From the IMG/VR virus record IMGVR_UViG_2896607866_000010: a DNA stretch of 29,033 bases. The stretch is one strand, 5' to 3'. The notes under the pieces are model-generated. The model searched no databases. It was not told the origin of the DNA and saw only the letters and a program-made list of their open reading frames with translations. This stretch comes from a virus (taxonomy: Duplodnaviria; Heunggongvirae; Uroviricota; Caudoviricetes). Both the position numbers and the translations under genes were made by a program. This document shows, piece after piece, positions 15,304 through 28,455 of this stretch (positions within the stretch are counted from its first letter, which is position 1; each line of letters opens with the position of its first letter).

Positions 15304-15378
<75 letters not shown>

Positions 15379-15381
15379 ATA

Positions 15382-15456
<75 letters not shown>

Positions 15457-15458
15457 GC

Positions 15459-15535
15459 TGGCCCACCACCGAGGACTCGAACCTCGCACCGTCAACTTAG
15501 AAGGTTGATGCTCTATCCGGATGAGCTAGTGGTGG
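15459..15535 (-). tRNA. tRNA-Arg (anticodon UCU), phage argN/argU-like
   Basis: Cloverleaf with anticodon loop CUUCUAA, T-loop TTCGAGT, acceptor CCACCAC/GTGGTGG and encoded CCA; unusual C at position 1. Confidence 0.7.
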
Positions 15536-15536
15536 T

Positions 15537-15613
15537 TGGTGGCCCTTGCTGGACTTGAACCAGCGACCTGGCGATTATGAGTCGCTCGCTCTGACCAACT
15601 GAGCTAAAGGGCC
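15537..15613 (-). tRNA. tRNA with CAU anticodon, most similar to tRNA-Ile2 (ileX/ileZ-like); Met not excluded
   Basis: Cloverleaf with acceptor GGCCCTT/AAGGGCC, anticodon loop CUCAUAA, T-loop TTCAAGT and encoded CCA; resembles E. coli ileX as recalled. Confidence 0.75.
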
Positions 15614-17818: not shown

Positions 17819-17974
17819 TTACTTCCTGGATTCGTAGTCTACGAAGACAGCGACCTCCGTCTGGCCGGTTCGGATTCGTACCTCACAGAGGTCTTTCCTC
17901 GTTACCAGTGCCGTCACTATGACGGTTAAACAGATGACGATCAGGGCGATTAACATCGCCTTTTGCTGCTTCAT
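17819..17974 (-). CDS. hok: Hok/Gef-family membrane toxin (type I toxin-antitoxin), HokD/RelF-like
   Basis: 51-aa product MKQQKAMLIALIVICLTVIVTALVTRKDLCEVRIRTGQTEVAVF... matching Hok/RelF as recalled; SD AAGGAG 9 nt upstream. Confidence 0.8.
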   Translation of the reverse strand: MKQQKAMLIALIVICLTVIVTALVTRKDLCEVRIRTGQTEVAVFVDYESRK

Positions 17975-18201
17975 AGCCTGCTTCTCCTTGCCTTTCGGCA
18001 TGTAAGAGGCTAACCTACATGTGCAAAGCATGAAATTGGCCTCAGATTAATGTTAAGCGTCTTGCCGGACGCGTAATGTTAACTGGGGCTTTTCTCTATC
18101 TGCCTTTTGGTGTTCATGCCTGAAGCAGATAGCCTCAAGCACCCGCAGTCATTCTACTTACCTCGCCAATATGAAATCAATCAGAAAGGTGCCCCATAAA
18201 A

Positions 18202-20960: not shown

Positions 20961-21032
20961 TGAAGTGGCACACTGAATTTGGCCACCTGAACAGAGGTGA
21001 TATGCTCACCTCAGAACAACACAGGTGCTCCA

Positions 21033-22201
<1,169 letters not shown>

Positions 22202-22287
22202 CCACTTCATTTTTGGCGAGGGGGATTTAGGGGGAGATCAGTATTTAGATCTTCCTCTTCCTCTGGTAACGCTTTTTGATCCGTTTG

Positions 22288-22751: not shown

Positions 22752-23174
22752 TCAATGCACTACGACAGAATCGCCGGGCGACCCACCACCGCTGAAATGT
22801 GCTTTCCGGTAAACGGCCTGGACAGCATCATCATGCGCATCAATTGCCGTACTCAACGCTTCCTGCGCCGCCAGTAATGCACGGCGTTCCAGGGTATCGA
22901 AGATACAGAGTCGGTGACGCAGCTCACGCGGAAGAATTGCCAGAACCGCAGGGATCAGTTTCTGAATTTTTTCCCTTTGCGCTTTCGTTTCACCTTTCAA
23001 CCAACGGTGATAGATATTCTGCTGATTGTTCCAGTCCTTGCCTGGTACCAGAGACAATTCGCCGCCCCCCTGCCGCAGATATTCTTCAGTAATTGCGTTA
23101 GCGACCCACGCCTGCCCTTTTTCGGCTGCCAGGGCTAACAGCACTGATTCGATGTGCTCATGCCTGATTTTCAT
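22752..23174 (-). CDS. ydaT: YdaT-like protein (Rac prophage toxin-like)
   Basis: 140-aa ORF MKIRHEHIESVLLALAAEKGQAWVANAITEEYLRQ... resembling E. coli YdaT as recalled; overlaps the ydaS-like 3' end. Confidence 0.6.
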   Translation of the reverse strand: MKIRHEHIESVLLALAAEKGQAWVANAITEEYLRQGGGELSLVPGKDWNNQQNIYHRWLKGETKAQREKIQKLIPAVLAILPRELRHRLCIFDTLERRALLAAQEALSTAIDAHDDAVQAVYRKAHFSGGGSPGDSVVVH

Positions 23175-23385
23175 GAATCACCTTCCCAGGTCGTTTTGCC
23201 TTACGATATTCGTCATAAACTTTGGGGTCGTACTGAAGTTCCCCGCCAGATGCCTCTTGCAGGCGCATCGCGCGACCTTCAGGAACCAGTTCCCCCCATG
23301 CAGCAATGCTTGCCAGCCTAACTCCTGCGGCATTGGCAAGCTTTGTTTTGCTGCCAAAAAACGCTATAGCATCAATTTTCAACAT
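23158..23385 (-). CDS. ydaS: YdaS-like Cro-type HTH protein
   Basis: 75-aa ORF MLKIDAIAFFGSKTKLANAAGVRLASIAAW...; divergent from the repressor gene. Confidence 0.6.
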   Translation of the reverse strand: MLKIDAIAFFGSKTKLANAAGVRLASIAAWGELVPEGRAMRLQEASGGELQYDPKVYDEYRKAKRPGKVIHENQA

Positions 23386-23461
23386 ATCGAGCTCCTTAGA
23401 TTTTCCTAAGGAAACTAGACCGTAGAGAAACCTAAGCCAAGAAAAATTAGAATTCCCTAAT
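23386..23461. promoter_or_regulatory. divergent promoter/operator region between the ydaS-like and racR-like genes
   Basis: 76-bp intergenic region with two inverted copies of a 15-bp motif (CTTAGATTTTCCTAA at 23395-23409; CTTAGGTTTCTCTAC on the minus strand at 23422-23436). Confidence 0.45.
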
Positions 23462-23869
23462 ATGAAAAACGAAACCTTCGGTGCTCGCCTCTTACATAGG
23501 CGTAAAAAATTAAAACTGTCTCAGGCCGCATTAGGTAAGCTGGTCAAAGTGGCTCACGTAACAATTTCTCAATGGGAAAGAGATGAAACACAGCCGGCGG
23601 GGAAAAGATTATTCGCACTGAGCCAAGCGCTTCAGTGCTCACCGACTTGGCTTCTTTTTGGGGATGAAGATAAACAACCAGGCGAACCGATCCCGGATAA
23701 TCAGCCAGCCATTCTGACAGAAGATCAAAAAGAGTTACTTCAACTGTTCGACGCACTGCCTGAGTCAGAGCAAAAGGCCCTGTTGTCAGAGATGCGTGCT
23801 CGAGTTGAAAATTTCAACAAACTTTTTGAAGAACTACTCAAAGCTCGCAAAAGAAGCGCAAACAAATAA
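23462..23869 (+). CDS. racR: prophage repressor, RacR-like (XRE-family HTH)
   Basis: 135-aa ORF; N-terminal HTH (LSQAALGKLVKVAHVTISQWERDETQP); divergent from the ydaS/ydaT-like genes as in the Rac immunity region. Confidence 0.65.
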   Translation: MKNETFGARLLHRRKKLKLSQAALGKLVKVAHVTISQWERDETQPAGKRLFALSQALQCSPTWLLFGDEDKQPGEPIPDNQPAILTEDQKELLQLFDALPESEQKALLSEMRARVENFNKLFEELLKARKRSANK

Positions 23870-23941
23870 TCCCCTTTTTTCTCCACACCCTGTAATAAAA
23901 AGCACAAACTTTCAAACACTTGTGTTTTTTACATCAAAAAA

Positions 23942-23992
23942 CTTAGGTTTTTCTACACAAAAATCTTGACCGCCCTCCTTAGGTTATTCTAA
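23942..23992 (+). promoter_or_regulatory. two direct copies of the 15-bp operator-like motif with a candidate promoter, downstream of racR
   Basis: CTTAGGTTTTTCTAC (23942-23956) and CTTAGGTTATTCTAA (23978-23992); TTGACC at 23966-23971 lies between them. Confidence 0.4.
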
Positions 23993-24071
23993 ATTTCATT
24001 CATCAAGACACCGCACGGTGTTCTCAGCAAACAGTTCCGCTACCCCGGCGTTAAGGGGAAATGGGGTCAAC

Positions 24072-24227
24072 ATGAATACTATCGATCTTGGCAACAACGA
24101 ATCTCTGGTGTACGGCGTGTTCCCCAACCAGGACGGCACATTCACCGCCATGACGTATACCAAAAGCAAAACGTTTAAAACCGAAGCTGGCGCACGTCGT
24201 TGGTTGGGAAGACATTCAGGTGAGTAA
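24072..24227 (+). CDS. small Rac-region protein, YdaF-like (DUF1391), tentative
   Basis: 51-aa product MNTIDLGNNESLVYGVFPNQDGTFTAMTYTKSKTF... with SD AAGGGGAAA. Confidence 0.4.
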   Translation: MNTIDLGNNESLVYGVFPNQDGTFTAMTYTKSKTFKTEAGARRWLGRHSGE

Positions 24228-24228
24228 A

Positions 24229-24432
24229 ATGAACGAGACAGAATTAAAACACGTTATCGCTCTACTCCTAGAAGATGCAAAACGCCTCCAGCAACTGGAG
24301 CCAAATGCAGGCACTGGGGCACGCATCTGGCTGGCTAAAGAAGCGCTGGAATCTGGCGATTATGATAGCGAAGAAGCCTTCTACAAAGCAGAAGGCCGTG
24401 CAGGATATTCACCGGGTCTTGGCGGGGTATAA
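24229..24432 (+). CDS. hypothetical small protein
   Basis: 67-aa ORF MNETELKHVIALLLEDAKRLQQ... with SD AGGTGAG; start overlaps the upstream stop. Confidence 0.3.
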   Translation: MNETELKHVIALLLEDAKRLQQLEPNAGTGARIWLAKEALESGDYDSEEAFYKAEGRAGYSPGLGGV

Positions 24433-24662: not shown

Positions 24663-24673
24663 TGGATTTGCCC

Positions 24674-25579
24674 CTATATTTCCAGACATCTGTTATCACT
24701 TAACCCATTACAAGCCCGCTGCCGCAGATATTCCCGTGGCGAGCGATAACCCAGCGCACTATGCGGATGCCATTCGTTATAATACTCGAACGCCTCTGCA
24801 AGGTTCTTTGCTGCCGTTAACCCGTCTGGTTTGGGCATGATACTGATGTAGTCACGCTTTATCGTTTTCACGAAGCTCTCTGCTATTCCGTTACTCTCCG
24901 GACTCCGCACCGCCGTGTTCTTCGGTTCAAGTCCCAACATCCGGGCGAACTGGCGTGTTTCATTAGCCCGGTAGCATGAACCATTATCCGTCAGCCACTC
25001 CACTGGAGACGACGGAAGATCGTTGCCGAAGCGGCGTTCCACCGCTCCCAGCATGACGTCCTGTACTGTTTCACTGTTGAAGCCGCCGGTAGTCACCGCC
25101 CAGTGCAGTGCCTCACGATCACAGCAGTCCAGCGCGAACGTGACACGCAGTCTCTCTCCGTTATCACAGCAGAACTCGAACCCGTCAGAGCACCATCGCT
25201 GATTGCTTTCTTTCACGGCCACTCTGCCTGTATGTGCCCGTTTCGATGGCGGTACAGCAGGTTTTCGCTCAAGCAACAGCGCATTCTGGCGCATGATCCG
25301 GTAAACACGTTTGGCATTGATCGCAGGCATACCATCAAGTTCTGCCTGTCTGCGAAGCAGCGCCCATACCCGACGATAACCATACGTGGGCAGCTCTCCG
25401 ATAACATGGTGTATACGGAGAAGCACATCCGTATCATCAGTGTGACGACTGCGGCGGCCATCCATCCAGTCATCGGTTCGTCTGAGAATGACGTGCAACT
25501 GCGCACGCGACACCCGGAGACAACGGCTGACTAAGCTTACTCCCCATCCCCGGGCAATAAGGGCGCGTGCGCTATCCAC
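24674..25579 (-). CDS. insD: IS2 transposase OrfB (InsD), copy 2
   Basis: 301-aa ORF, one amino-acid difference from copy 1 (H to Y near the C-terminus). Confidence 0.9.
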
Positions 25580-25902
25580 TTTTTTGCCCGTCCATATTCA
25601 ACGGCTTCTTTGAGGAGTTCATTTTCCATCGTTTTCTTGCCGAGCAGGCGCTGGAGTTCTTTAATCTGCTTCATGGCGGCAGCAAGTTCAGAGGCAGGAA
25701 CAACCTGTTCTCCGGCGGCCACAGCAGTAAGACTTCCTTCCTGGTATTGCTTACGCCAGAGAAATAACTGGCTGGCTGCTACACCATGTTGCCGGGCAAC
25801 GAGGGAGACCGTCATCCCCGGTTCAAAGCTCTGCTGAACAATTGCGATCTTTTCCTGTGTGGTACGCCGTCTGCGTTTCTCCGGCCCTAAGACATCAATC
25901 AT
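25537..25902 (-). CDS. insC: IS2 transposase OrfA (InsC), copy 2
   Basis: Identical product to the copy 1 InsC. Confidence 0.85.
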
Positions 25903-25993
25903 CTGTTCTCCAATGACTAGTCTAAAAACTAGTATTAAGACTATCACTTAAATAAGTGATACTGGTTGTCTGGAGATTCAGAGGGCCAGTCTA

Positions 25994-26449: not shown

Positions 26450-27298
26450 ATGTTGAATGTAGCTATTGAAAACCAGAACGGGTGGAATTATAGTGCACCT
26501 GCACCTCATAAAACGGGTGCCGGGATTGCTACCCCGACGATGACTACTGCGCATAACCGCGCTCAGGCGGTTTTTTTATGCGTCAAGCACAGCCACATTC
26601 AGATTATGGTGGGGCGTGCAGGGCAGCCGCAAGGCTGGCCGGTTTCGGTAGTCACCGGTTGTAGCAACCCTGTGCGTCTCACCACCCATGAGATTGCTAC
26701 CTCTGGTGGTGAGTTATTTAAACTGACTATCGAGGCTGCCATCATGGCTACTATCCTTACCCTTTCTCACCCTGACGTAACCATCGAAAATGGTCGCGCT
26801 GTCACTACGTCTGTTGCGGTTGCGGAGTTCTTCCGGAAAATGCACAAAAACGTTATTCAGAAGATCGAAACTCTCGAATGCTCGCCGGAGTTTAACCGGC
26901 TTAATTTTAAGCCCGTCACCTATACCGACGCCAAAGGCGAAAAACGCCCAATGTACCAAATCACCAAAAACGGCTTCGTTTTCCTGGTGATGGGCTTCAC
27001 TGGCAAAAAAGCCGCCGCATTCAAGGAAGCCTACATTGCTGAGTTCGACCGCATGGAGGCCGAACTGCGCCAGAATAACACCCCACCTGCTGACAAGATG
27101 ATTCCGGGTGATGGTCGCACTCTGGTTGTTCACTTCGACAAATTCGGCAATGTCGAATTCACCGAAACCGTTCCTGATGGCGCACTGGTCTGTACCCTGG
27201 AGACTTTCCGGTTTTATCTGGAAAAACAGGGATGGACTCTTGTTAACCGGGGCGCAATTAAAAATATGACTGTGGAACAATTACTTTCTTTAAAATAA
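26450..27298 (+). CDS. Rha-family phage regulatory protein with an N-terminal extension
   Basis: SD AAAGGAAAGAG before ATG 26450; Rha-like region from about 26744 (internal ATG with GAGG SD), e.g. AVTTSVAVAEFFRKMHKNVIQKIETL; whether there is one fused ORF or two genes is unresolved. Confidence 0.5.
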   Translation: MLNVAIENQNGWNYSAPAPHKTGAGIATPTMTTAHNRAQAVFLCVKHSHIQIMVGRAGQPQGWPVSVVTGCSNPVRLTTHEIATSGGELFKLTIEAAIMATILTLSHPDVTIENGRAVTTSVAVAEFFRKMHKNVIQKIETLECSPEFNRLNFKPVTYTDAKGEKRPMYQITKNGFVFLVMGFTGKKAAAFKEAYIAEFDRMEAELRQNNTPPADKMIPGDGRTLVVHFDKFGNVEFTETVPDGALVCTLETFRFYLEKQGWTLVNRGAIKNMTVEQLLSLK

Positions 27299-27596: not shown

Positions 27597-27702
27597 TTAA
27601 CTGACTATTCGAAACTGAATTTATGCCAGCAATGGCAGGGATTCGCTCAACCTTAATTAAGGAGAAAAACATGAACACCAATTATGAGGTAATGACTCCA
27701 AC

Positions 27703-28206
27703 TTACTGATAGTGTTTTATGTTCAGATAATGCCCGATGACCTTGTCATGCAGCTCCACCGATTTTGAGAACGACAGTGACTTCCGTACCAGCCTTGCCA
27801 GATGTTGTCTCAGATTCAGATTATGTCGCTCAATGCGCTGAGTGTAACGCTTGCTGATAACGTGCAGCTTTCCCTTCAGGCGTGATTCATACAGCGGCCA
27901 GCCATCCGTCATCCATACCACGACCTCAAAGGCCGACAGCAGGCTCAGAAGACGCTCCAGTGTGGCCAGAGTGCGTTCACCGAAGACGTGCGCCACAACC
28001 GTCCTCCGTATCCTGTCATACGCGTAAAACAGCCAGCGCTGACGTGATTTAGCACCGACGTAGCCCCAATGTTCGTCCATTTCAGCGCAGACAATCACAT
28101 CACTGCCCGGTTGTATGCGCGAGGTTACCGACTGCGGCCTGAGTTTTTTAAGTGACGTAAAACCGTGTTGAGGCCAACGCCCATAATGCGTGCACTGGCG
28201 CGACAT
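27703..28206 (-). CDS. insB: IS1 InsB (transposase C-terminal part)
   Basis: 167-aa ORF matching IS1 InsB as recalled. Confidence 0.9.
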
Positions 28207-28400
28207 CCGACGCCATTCATGGCCATATCAATGATTTTCTGGTGCGTACCGGGCTGAGAGGCGGTGTAAGTGAACTGTAGTTGCCATGTTTTACGGCAAT
28301 GAGAGCAGAGATAGCGCTGATGTCCGGCAGTGCTTTTGCCGTTACGCACCACGCCTTCAGTAGCGGAGCAGGAAGGACATCTGATGGAAATGGAAGCCAC
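28125..28400 (-). CDS. insA: IS1 InsA
   Basis: 91-aa zinc-finger protein (CPSC...CSHC); GTG start. Confidence 0.85.
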
Positions 28401-28455
28401 GCAAGCACCTTAAAATCACCATCATACACTAAATCAGTAAGTTGGCAGCATTACC

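Follow-up and report, generated by a model that had tools for sequence, protein, structure and literature searches.

IMG/VR record IMGVR_UViG_2896607866_000010 is a 29,033-nt stretch of DNA from a virus (Caudoviricetes); the whole stretch is called the window below, and all coordinates refer to it. It contains an immunity region in which a repressor gene of the DicA subfamily diverges from a cro-like gene of the DicC subfamily, with five 16-bp dyads around the repressor gene: three (OR1, OR2 and OR3) between the two genes and two (OL1 and OL2) downstream of the repressor gene. In view of the experiments on DicA and DicC of the prophage Qin, these dyads can be assigned as predicted operators, very probably shared by the repressor and the Cro-like protein, of promoters resembling lambda PR (rightward), PRM (repressor maintenance) and PL (leftward). 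An earlier note on this DNA had likened the presence of operators to either side of the repressor gene to lambda OR and OL, and this comparison is supported by conservation of the sites across genera, by their overlap with promoters and by the published Qin work. The same three kinds of evidence favor its suggestion that the repressor would control both the cro-like operon and the small genes on the plus strand.

Operator-like dyads and their conservation

The starting point was a 15-bp motif, CTTAGGTTTYTCTAC, reported in four copies flanking the repressor gene. A mismatch search recovers all four: two without mismatches, at 23422-23436 (minus strand) and 23942-23956 (plus strand), one with two mismatches at 23978-23992 (plus strand) and one with three at 23395-23409 (plus strand). 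When up to three mismatches are allowed, the window has six matches compared with 1.15 expected, a number reached in 0 of 100 shuffles. The divergent intergenic region does measure 76 bp (23386-23461), and the downstream copies do start 36 bp apart, with TTGACC between them at 23966-23971. Thus, the repeat is real, but only two of its copies are exact, the unit is one base longer than proposed and a further site had been missed. When both strands are read, the predicted binding unit is a 16-bp pseudo-palindrome, CTTAG-N6-CTAAG, with the core TTAG-N6-CTAA. Since the unit is a pseudo-palindrome, the ‘inverted’ or ‘direct’ orientation of a copy merely shows which of its half-sites is degenerate. 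A repeat finder and a search for the core add the fifth dyad, ATTAGAATTCCCTAAT at 23446-23461 (OR3). The centers of the dyads are 26 and 25 bp apart in the divergent region and 36 bp apart downstream.

Perfect TTAG-N6-CTAA dyads occur three times in the 29-kb window, all inside one 600-bp stretch, against 0.25-0.44 expected. Five TAG-N6-CTA dyads within 610 bp were not seen in any of 1000 dinucleotide shuffles, in which the largest cluster had three members. With one mismatch allowed in TTAG-N6-CTAA, the count for the whole window is 12 against 7.4 expected, which is not significant alone; the significance of the dyads rests only on their clustering and on the perfect matches. In a scan of the window with a symmetrised matrix, trained exclusively on sites from Pantoea, Enterobacter and a Klebsiella phage, the five dyads rank first (21.4, 21.4, 18.8, 18.0 and 15.2 bits) and the next match scores 11.0 bits. 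Further operators outside this region, such as one by the Rha/Ash open reading frame (ORF) described below, were considered and rejected: that match, at 459-474, is the best candidate, and it has no supporting context. A third OL site was also looked for, and the matrix scan of 23870-24071 gives nothing above 0.5 bits besides OL1 and OL2.

The features of the region are as follows (lengths of products in amino acids, aa; dyads without strand):

22752-23174, minus strand: ydaT-family gene coding for a CII analogue of 140 aa, second in the rightward PR-like operon; Pfam YdaT_toxin 43.3 bits, cut-off 21
23164-23181, minus strand: inverted repeat resembling a YdaT box, GTGATT-CATGAA-AATCAG, whose spacer contains the ydaT ATG; matched by eye
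23158-23385, minus strand: cro-like gene, DicC subfamily and P22 Cro family, 75 aa
23395-23410: OR1, CTTAGATTTTCCTAAG, perfect dyad, counterpart of Qin Oc; 21.4 bits, joint top in the window
23412-23417, minus strand: predicted PR -10, TAGTTT, in register with Qin dicCp
23421-23436: OR2, CGTAGAGAAACCTAAG, one half-site weak, within the predicted PR spacer; 18.0 bits
23435-23440, minus strand: predicted PR -35, TTGGCT
23446-23461: OR3, ATTAGAATTCCCTAAT, adjoining the repressor ATG; 15.2 bits, fifth in the window
23448-23453: candidate PRM-like -10, TAGAAT, inside OR3 and 8 bp before the repressor ATG
23462-23869, plus strand: repressor gene, DicA subfamily, 135 aa
23896-23931, plus strand: terminator hairpin downstream of the repressor gene; folding energy -9.6 kcal/mol, z = -2.87
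23942-23957: OL2, CTTAGGTTTTTCTACA, upstream of the PL-like -35; 18.8 bits
23966-23995, plus strand: PL-like promoter TTGACC-N18-TAAATT, counterpart of Qin dicBp; promoter scan 9/12
23978-23993: OL1, CTTAGGTTATTCTAAA, over the PL-like spacer and -10; 21.4 bits
24072-24227, plus strand: DUF1391 gene (ydfA/ydaF family), 51 aa, first in the PL-like operon; Pfam 97.4 bits, cut-off 27.3
24229-24432, plus strand: small ORF of 67 aa without a family match, second in the PL-like operon

Related prophages carry the motif at equivalent positions, as the earlier note had proposed to check. All five sites are kept in an O157:H7 prophage with 94% DNA identity. Repressors from Pantoea stewartii, Erwinia, Enterobacter hormaechei and a Klebsiella phage are only 71-74% identical to that of the window; in their loci the five dyads are kept in register and the flanks diverge. 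A column-by-column comparison drew on 80 IMG/VR loci together with the other type-1 loci; after reduction to distinct sequences, 24 were left for the upstream side and 48 for the downstream side. The mean column entropy is 0.139 bits in the sites, 0.057 bits in the TTAG/CTAA cores and 0.713 bits in other non-coding columns (Mann-Whitney p = 9e-21, sites versus others); the loci compared are homologous to one another, and these values are to be read as phylogenetic footprinting. The core columns of OR1 are invariant across the 24 distinct relatives. The OR2 16-mer is identical in the Pantoea and Erwinia loci and has one base changed in those of Enterobacter and the Klebsiella phage, and OR3 is conserved in all relatives compared. 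On the other side of the repressor gene, OL2 is an invariant island both in the cross-genus alignment and in the 48 distinct relatives, and OL1 is near-invariant in the latter. Between the PL-like -35 and OL1, a spacer of 6 bp (23972-23977) is hypervariable, with 1.2-1.7 bits per column among relatives that are otherwise 96-100% identical.

Across the DicA family the positions of the dyads are fixed, and their sequence shifts with the recognition helix of the repressor. The helix HV(T/S)(I/V)SQWE goes with TTAG-N6-CTAA, among others in the loci of Qin, PhiR42_1, E. albertii, Citrobacter and Yersinia. In mEp460 (L018) the helix is SGSSISLWE and the dyads are ATTGAG-N4-CTCAAT (1436-1451 and 1972-1987), while in phiES15 (L100) the helix is SSVSVFKWE and the dyad is CTAAC-N4-GTTAG (ACTAAC-N4-GTTAGT at 1591-1606). 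The dyads of these two phages are raw material for a table relating helix to operator specificity in the DicA family.

Within the TTAG-N6-CTAA group there are two dialects, and the recognition helix AHVTISQWERDETQP is identical among repressors of both. CTTAG-N6-CTAAG is found in this window, the O157 PPompW prophage, Pantoea, Enterobacter and one Klebsiella phage, and GTTAG-N6-CTAAC in loci of E. albertii, E. ruysiae and Citrobacter, with GTTAG in Qin too; the core is common to all. We offer only tentatively, and with some doubt, the proposal that either residues outside helix 3 read the outermost base pair, which would set immunity specificity, or the alleles cross-react. If they do cross-react, one DicA-type repressor could silence several co-resident cryptic prophages; E. 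coli often carries two or more of these.

A separate resemblance concerns the OR1 half-sites: CTTAG and CTAAG are the C-box pentamers of C.Csp231I (CTAAG-n5-CTTAG), in reversed order and with other spacing (PMC9638921). C.Csp231I is a restriction-modification controller for which cross-talk with the Rac repressor region has been described (PMC9638921).

Regulators, promoters and the proposed switch

The earlier note had labeled the repressor gene racR-like and its divergent partner ydaS, and neither label fits. On the NCBIfam DicA model (NF007257, cut-off 101) the repressor scores 237.3 bits, the alignment covering residues 1-135 of 135, and it is 64% identical to Qin DicA. BLASTP against a K-12-type RacR gives only a 5-residue match with E = 3. 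The Pfam matches of the repressor are to helix-turn-helix families only, in an N-terminal domain that is followed by a short C-terminal helical part; there is no Pfam match to the S24 peptidase domain (LexA-like self-cleavage), and the protein ends at residue 135. Residues 2-69 match the N-terminal domain of P22 C2 (phmmer E 1e-21; 1adr/2r1j). The cro-like protein scores 158.3 bits with the NCBIfam DicC model (NF007282, cut-off 130) and 49.7 bits with Pfam P22_Cro (cut-off 30.2), is 79% identical to Qin DicC and matches the P22 Cro structure 1rzs (E 2.4e-7). With YdaS it gives no BLASTP alignment, and Pfam YdaS_toxin reaches 20.4 bits, under the cut-off of 30.

Of the operon naming ydaS/ydaT, the second half can be kept: the ydaT product is 96% identical to Rac YdaT. 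The description of the operon as ‘toxin-like’ is dated, as YdaS/YdaT-type proteins are, it has been argued, analogues of Cro and CII (PMC8630535, PMC9986795). With DicA/DicC-family regulators beside so Rac-like a YdaT, the region is, by these matches, a mosaic in which a DicA/DicC immunity module is joined to a Rac-type ydaT. This corrects the annotation of the region, which is not a Rac racR-ydaS module; GenBank copies with 97.8% identity in O157-group PPompW prophages already carry a dicA annotation. The inverted repeat around the ydaT start codon resembles, on comparison by eye, the published YdaT boxes ATGATT-N6-AATCAA / TTGATT-N6-AATCAA (PMC11879457, PMC9986795).

The predicted PR-like promoter is on the minus strand, where TTGGCT (23440-23435) and TAGTTT (23417-23412) are separated by a 17-bp spacer in the same register as Qin dicCp (TTGACT-N17-TATTTT). 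OR2 fills this spacer; OR1 begins one base past the -10, covers the predicted start and touches AGGAG, the Shine-Dalgarno sequence of the cro-like gene. At 23437, the C of the window gives the -35 TTGGCT, whereas nearly all of the ~80 related loci have TTGACT, and one IMG/VR locus shares the change; this C is possibly a promoter-down mutation of a prophage in decay. OR3, which overlaps TAGAAT, is on the upstream side of the predicted -35. The placing of that hexamer 8 bp before the repressor ATG, upstream of which no Shine-Dalgarno sequence was seen, suggests a leaderless maintenance transcript like that of lambda PRM.

Past the repressor gene come the terminator, OL2, TTGACC, OL1 overlapping TAAATT, and the DUF1391 gene, in that order. 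In the terminator hairpin, an A-tract precedes and a U-tract follows the A/U-rich stem of 12 bp, and distant relatives have a hairpin of other sequence at the same place. The PL-like promoter is in the same register as the Qin promoter TTGACC-N17-TAATCT.

What is known of Qin bears directly on this arrangement. There, DicA binds the operator Oc (TTGTTAGTCATAACTAACAA); dicC is repressed by it and dicA activated (PMC3441716). DicA also represses dicBp, a repression that the Rem antirepressor relieves, and the switch is bistable (PMC10448788). Chromatin immunoprecipitation with sequencing (ChIP-seq) of DicC gave peaks on both sides of dicA and the palindrome TT(A/C/T)G...C(G/A/T)AA (PMC11430063). 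A survey lists the DicA site at dicB as low-evidence and of unknown location (PMC7567609), and the OL-side map is therefore useful as comparative support. A compendium of chromatin immunoprecipitation data (PMC12059191) makes no mention of DicA or DicC, and a description of CTTAG-type operators for this DicA allele was not found in the literature.

What we infer of binding, promoter starts, the leaderless transcript, cooperativity and the route of induction is as follows. The repressor, probably a dimer, would bind the five 16-bp dyads through its P22-C2-like helix-turn-helix domain. Since OR1 covers the PR start and OR2 its spacer, repressor bound there would silence PR and with it the operon of the cro-like gene and ydaT. 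The overlap of OR3 with TAGAAT fits a leaderless PRM-like transcript of the repressor gene, one turned off when occupancy by repressor or Cro is high. At the PL-like promoter, where OL2 and OL1 flank the -35 and extend over the -10, the repressor would also silence the leftward operon with its ydfA-like gene. The DicC-like Cro is expected to share these sites and to act in the opposite way, and a bistable switch would result. As the repressor has no peptidase domain, relief would come through an antirepressor and not through RecA-driven self-cleavage.

Several points weigh against the assignment of all five dyads as shared operators. The predicted PR hexamers, TTGGCT and TAGTTT, are poor and were missed by the promoter scan. 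Only two OL sites were found in the window, compared with three operator sites on the dicBp side in the Qin literature (PMC10448788). OR3 and OL1 overlap -10-like hexamers, so their conservation could partly reflect promoter function, and the relatives are homologous loci, so conservation is not independent evidence from each of them. Finally, in an in vivo assay in Qin, DicA bound Oc only and neither Om nor Oa (PMC3441716), so some of the five sites may be weak or mainly those of Cro.

This last result leads to the most serious rival, namely that the dyads mainly serve the Cro-like (DicC) protein, or that both regulators use them but the repressor occupies only some, for instance OR1 and OL1, with the remaining dyads serving Cro-mediated shut-off of repressor synthesis. 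The strongest DicC ChIP-seq peaks in Qin flank dicA and share the TTNG...CNAA palindrome (PMC11430063); such a division of labor fits these peaks, and also the binding of DicA at Oc alone. We nevertheless consider it unlikely: in lambdoid switches the two proteins use common operators, DicA represses dicCp as well as dicBp (PMC10448788), and the half-sites co-vary with the recognition helix of the repressor, although the Cro partners change in parallel and the covariation cannot separate repressor from Cro. That the repeats are conserved as promoter elements or as A/T-rich structural DNA, with no regulator binding them, is highly improbable. It would account for the -10-like TAGAAT in OR3 and TAAATT in OL1, and the region is indeed A/T-rich, with TTTT-type dyads frequent there too. 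However, OR1, OR2 and OL2 lie off the promoter hexamers and are equally invariant, all five dyads have one geometry, and the dyads of mEp460 and phiES15 change with the repressor helix while keeping their positions.

Reading the dyads as RacR operators of a Rac-type immunity region is scarcely credible, despite the near-identity of ydaT, a DUF1391 gene that resembles ydaF and a gene order like that of Rac. Identity of the regulators with RacR and YdaS is refuted at the sequence level by the BLASTP results above and by the NCBIfam DicA and DicC models, whose cut-offs are both exceeded. The footprinted RacR operators, (T/A)TAGGC-n3-GCCTA(T/A) (PMC9638921), moreover differ in half-site and spacing, as is visible in the Rac locus L003. 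Shared operators of the DicA-type repressor and the DicC-type Cro thus remain the reading we prefer.

Leader, insertions and other neighboring features

Directly after the PL-like promoter is a leader of ~65 nt (24001-24066, plus strand) that is kept across heteroimmune prophages (Qin, mEp460 and O157), its second half also in Rac. It was found in loci L002, L004, L009 and L018, and in a diverged form in L006, L008, L011, L012 and L017. After CATCAA come a first hairpin (CACCG-CA-CGGTG), the motif CTCAG, an A-rich stretch and GTTCCGC, followed by a second hairpin (CCCC-GGCGTTAA-GGGG). In three of seven sequences a single stem pair is switched from CG to GC, the sole compensatory change. The folding energy is ordinary (z = -0.39), the leader has no Rfam match and no second copy in the window, and a BLAST comparison with phages gave no HK022-type match and no annotation. 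With an ordinary fold, one compensatory pair and no HK022-type match, the leader was not accepted as a put- or nut-like RNA, and such a role is no stronger than possible. Searches of 23380-24240 for known RNA families, with Rfam gathering thresholds and by E-value, returned nothing credible.

Insertions interrupt the region on both sides. A copy of IS2 (~24663-25993) cuts the leftward PL-like operon after its second small ORF; its boundary was set from a BLAST map against the near-identical strain FDAARGOS_943 (L001) and from the transposase ORFs. An IS3-family (IS600-like) element (~20962-22206) splits a replication gene upstream of ydaT. FDAARGOS_943 lacks the IS2 and IS3-family insertions at these places. 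There is also an IS1 copy (27688-28455) near an integrase fragment.

Farther along the plus strand, an ORF with Ash/Rha domains (26450-27298) holds in its 5' part two RNA genes recognized by Rfam, isrK (61.5 bits) and the C4 antisense RNA (75.7 bits), the two spans being 26501-26577 and 26602-26689. The combination resembles antirepressor control modules, and by this analogy the ORF could be the inducer of a cleavage-resistant DicA-type repressor. The late region of the prophage has, on the minus strand, a sok antitoxin RNA of a hokD locus (17969-18144, 117 bits) and four tandem tRNA genes (15307-15613), which the FDAARGOS_943 annotation gives as tRNA-Gly, Thr, Arg and Ile.

Comparison with known systems

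The immunity region can be compared with five systems. With the antirepressor-controlled short repressors of the Gifsy type (discussed in PMC10448788), it shares a short repressor that has no cleavage site, and the Ash/Rha-domain ORF with its isrK and C4 RNA genes, 2.6 kb downstream, is a further likeness. Rac has the same divergent layout of repressor and cro analogue, three intergenic operators and more sites before the ydaF-side promoter (PMC9638921), together with the near-identical ydaT. RacR and YdaS are, in contrast, unrelated to the regulators of the window, and the operators of the Rac locus read TTAGGC...GCCTAA.

P22 immC is closer in its proteins: the N-terminal domain of the repressor is homologous to that of C2, and the Cro-like protein matches P22 Cro. 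The LexA-like S24 C-terminal domain of C2 is missing from the repressor of the window, and the relation is limited to the N-terminal domain. The P22 operator, TTAAG-N4-CTTAA, has the same span as TTAG-N6-CTAA, with 14 bp between the outer T's. One half-site position is A in P22 and G in the window. This coincides with the replacement of Asn32 by His in the recognition helix, and the two changes may well be linked.

Like lambda, the window has a tripartite OR between divergent repressor and cro genes, a repressor-proximal site over the maintenance promoter, a second cluster at the leftward promoter and, probably, a leaderless repressor transcript. Unlike lambda, its sites are 16 bp long instead of 17, its OL sites number two instead of three and are just ~0.5 kb from OR, and its repressor has no RecA-sensitive domain and, with 21.4 bits on Phage_CI_repr, stays under the Pfam cut-off of 22 for a CI homologue.

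Qin is the nearest relative in organization. Both have regulators of the DicA and DicC subfamilies, the same gene order with ydaT-family and DUF1391 genes, and a short repressor with no cleavage domain. The dyads occupy the same positions relative to the genes and the TTGACC promoter, share the TTAG-N6-CTAA core and, for OR1-OR3, are in register with Oc, Om and Oa. Strong half-sites have C as their outermost base in the window (CTTAG) and G in Qin (GTTAG), the residues of helices 2 and 3 are AHVTISQWERDETQP and SHVSVSQWERDDSEP, respectively, and OR2 is a good site where Om is poor. The dicF/dicB cargo of Qin is missing from the window, which has no DicF hit in Rfam and an operon cut by IS2; the close relatives L004 and L005 carry dicB, and dicF/dicB is cargo outside the switch proper. 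The present map, with three OR and two OL sites, describes the operators of a DicA allele often found in E. coli O157/O111, in Shigella-like strains and in other Enterobacteriaceae. The locus is a textbook lambdoid switch, and its layout has been known for Qin since 1988, when Bejar et al., as cited in PMC10448788, called the arrangement of dicA, dicC and dicBp lambdoid-immunity-like.

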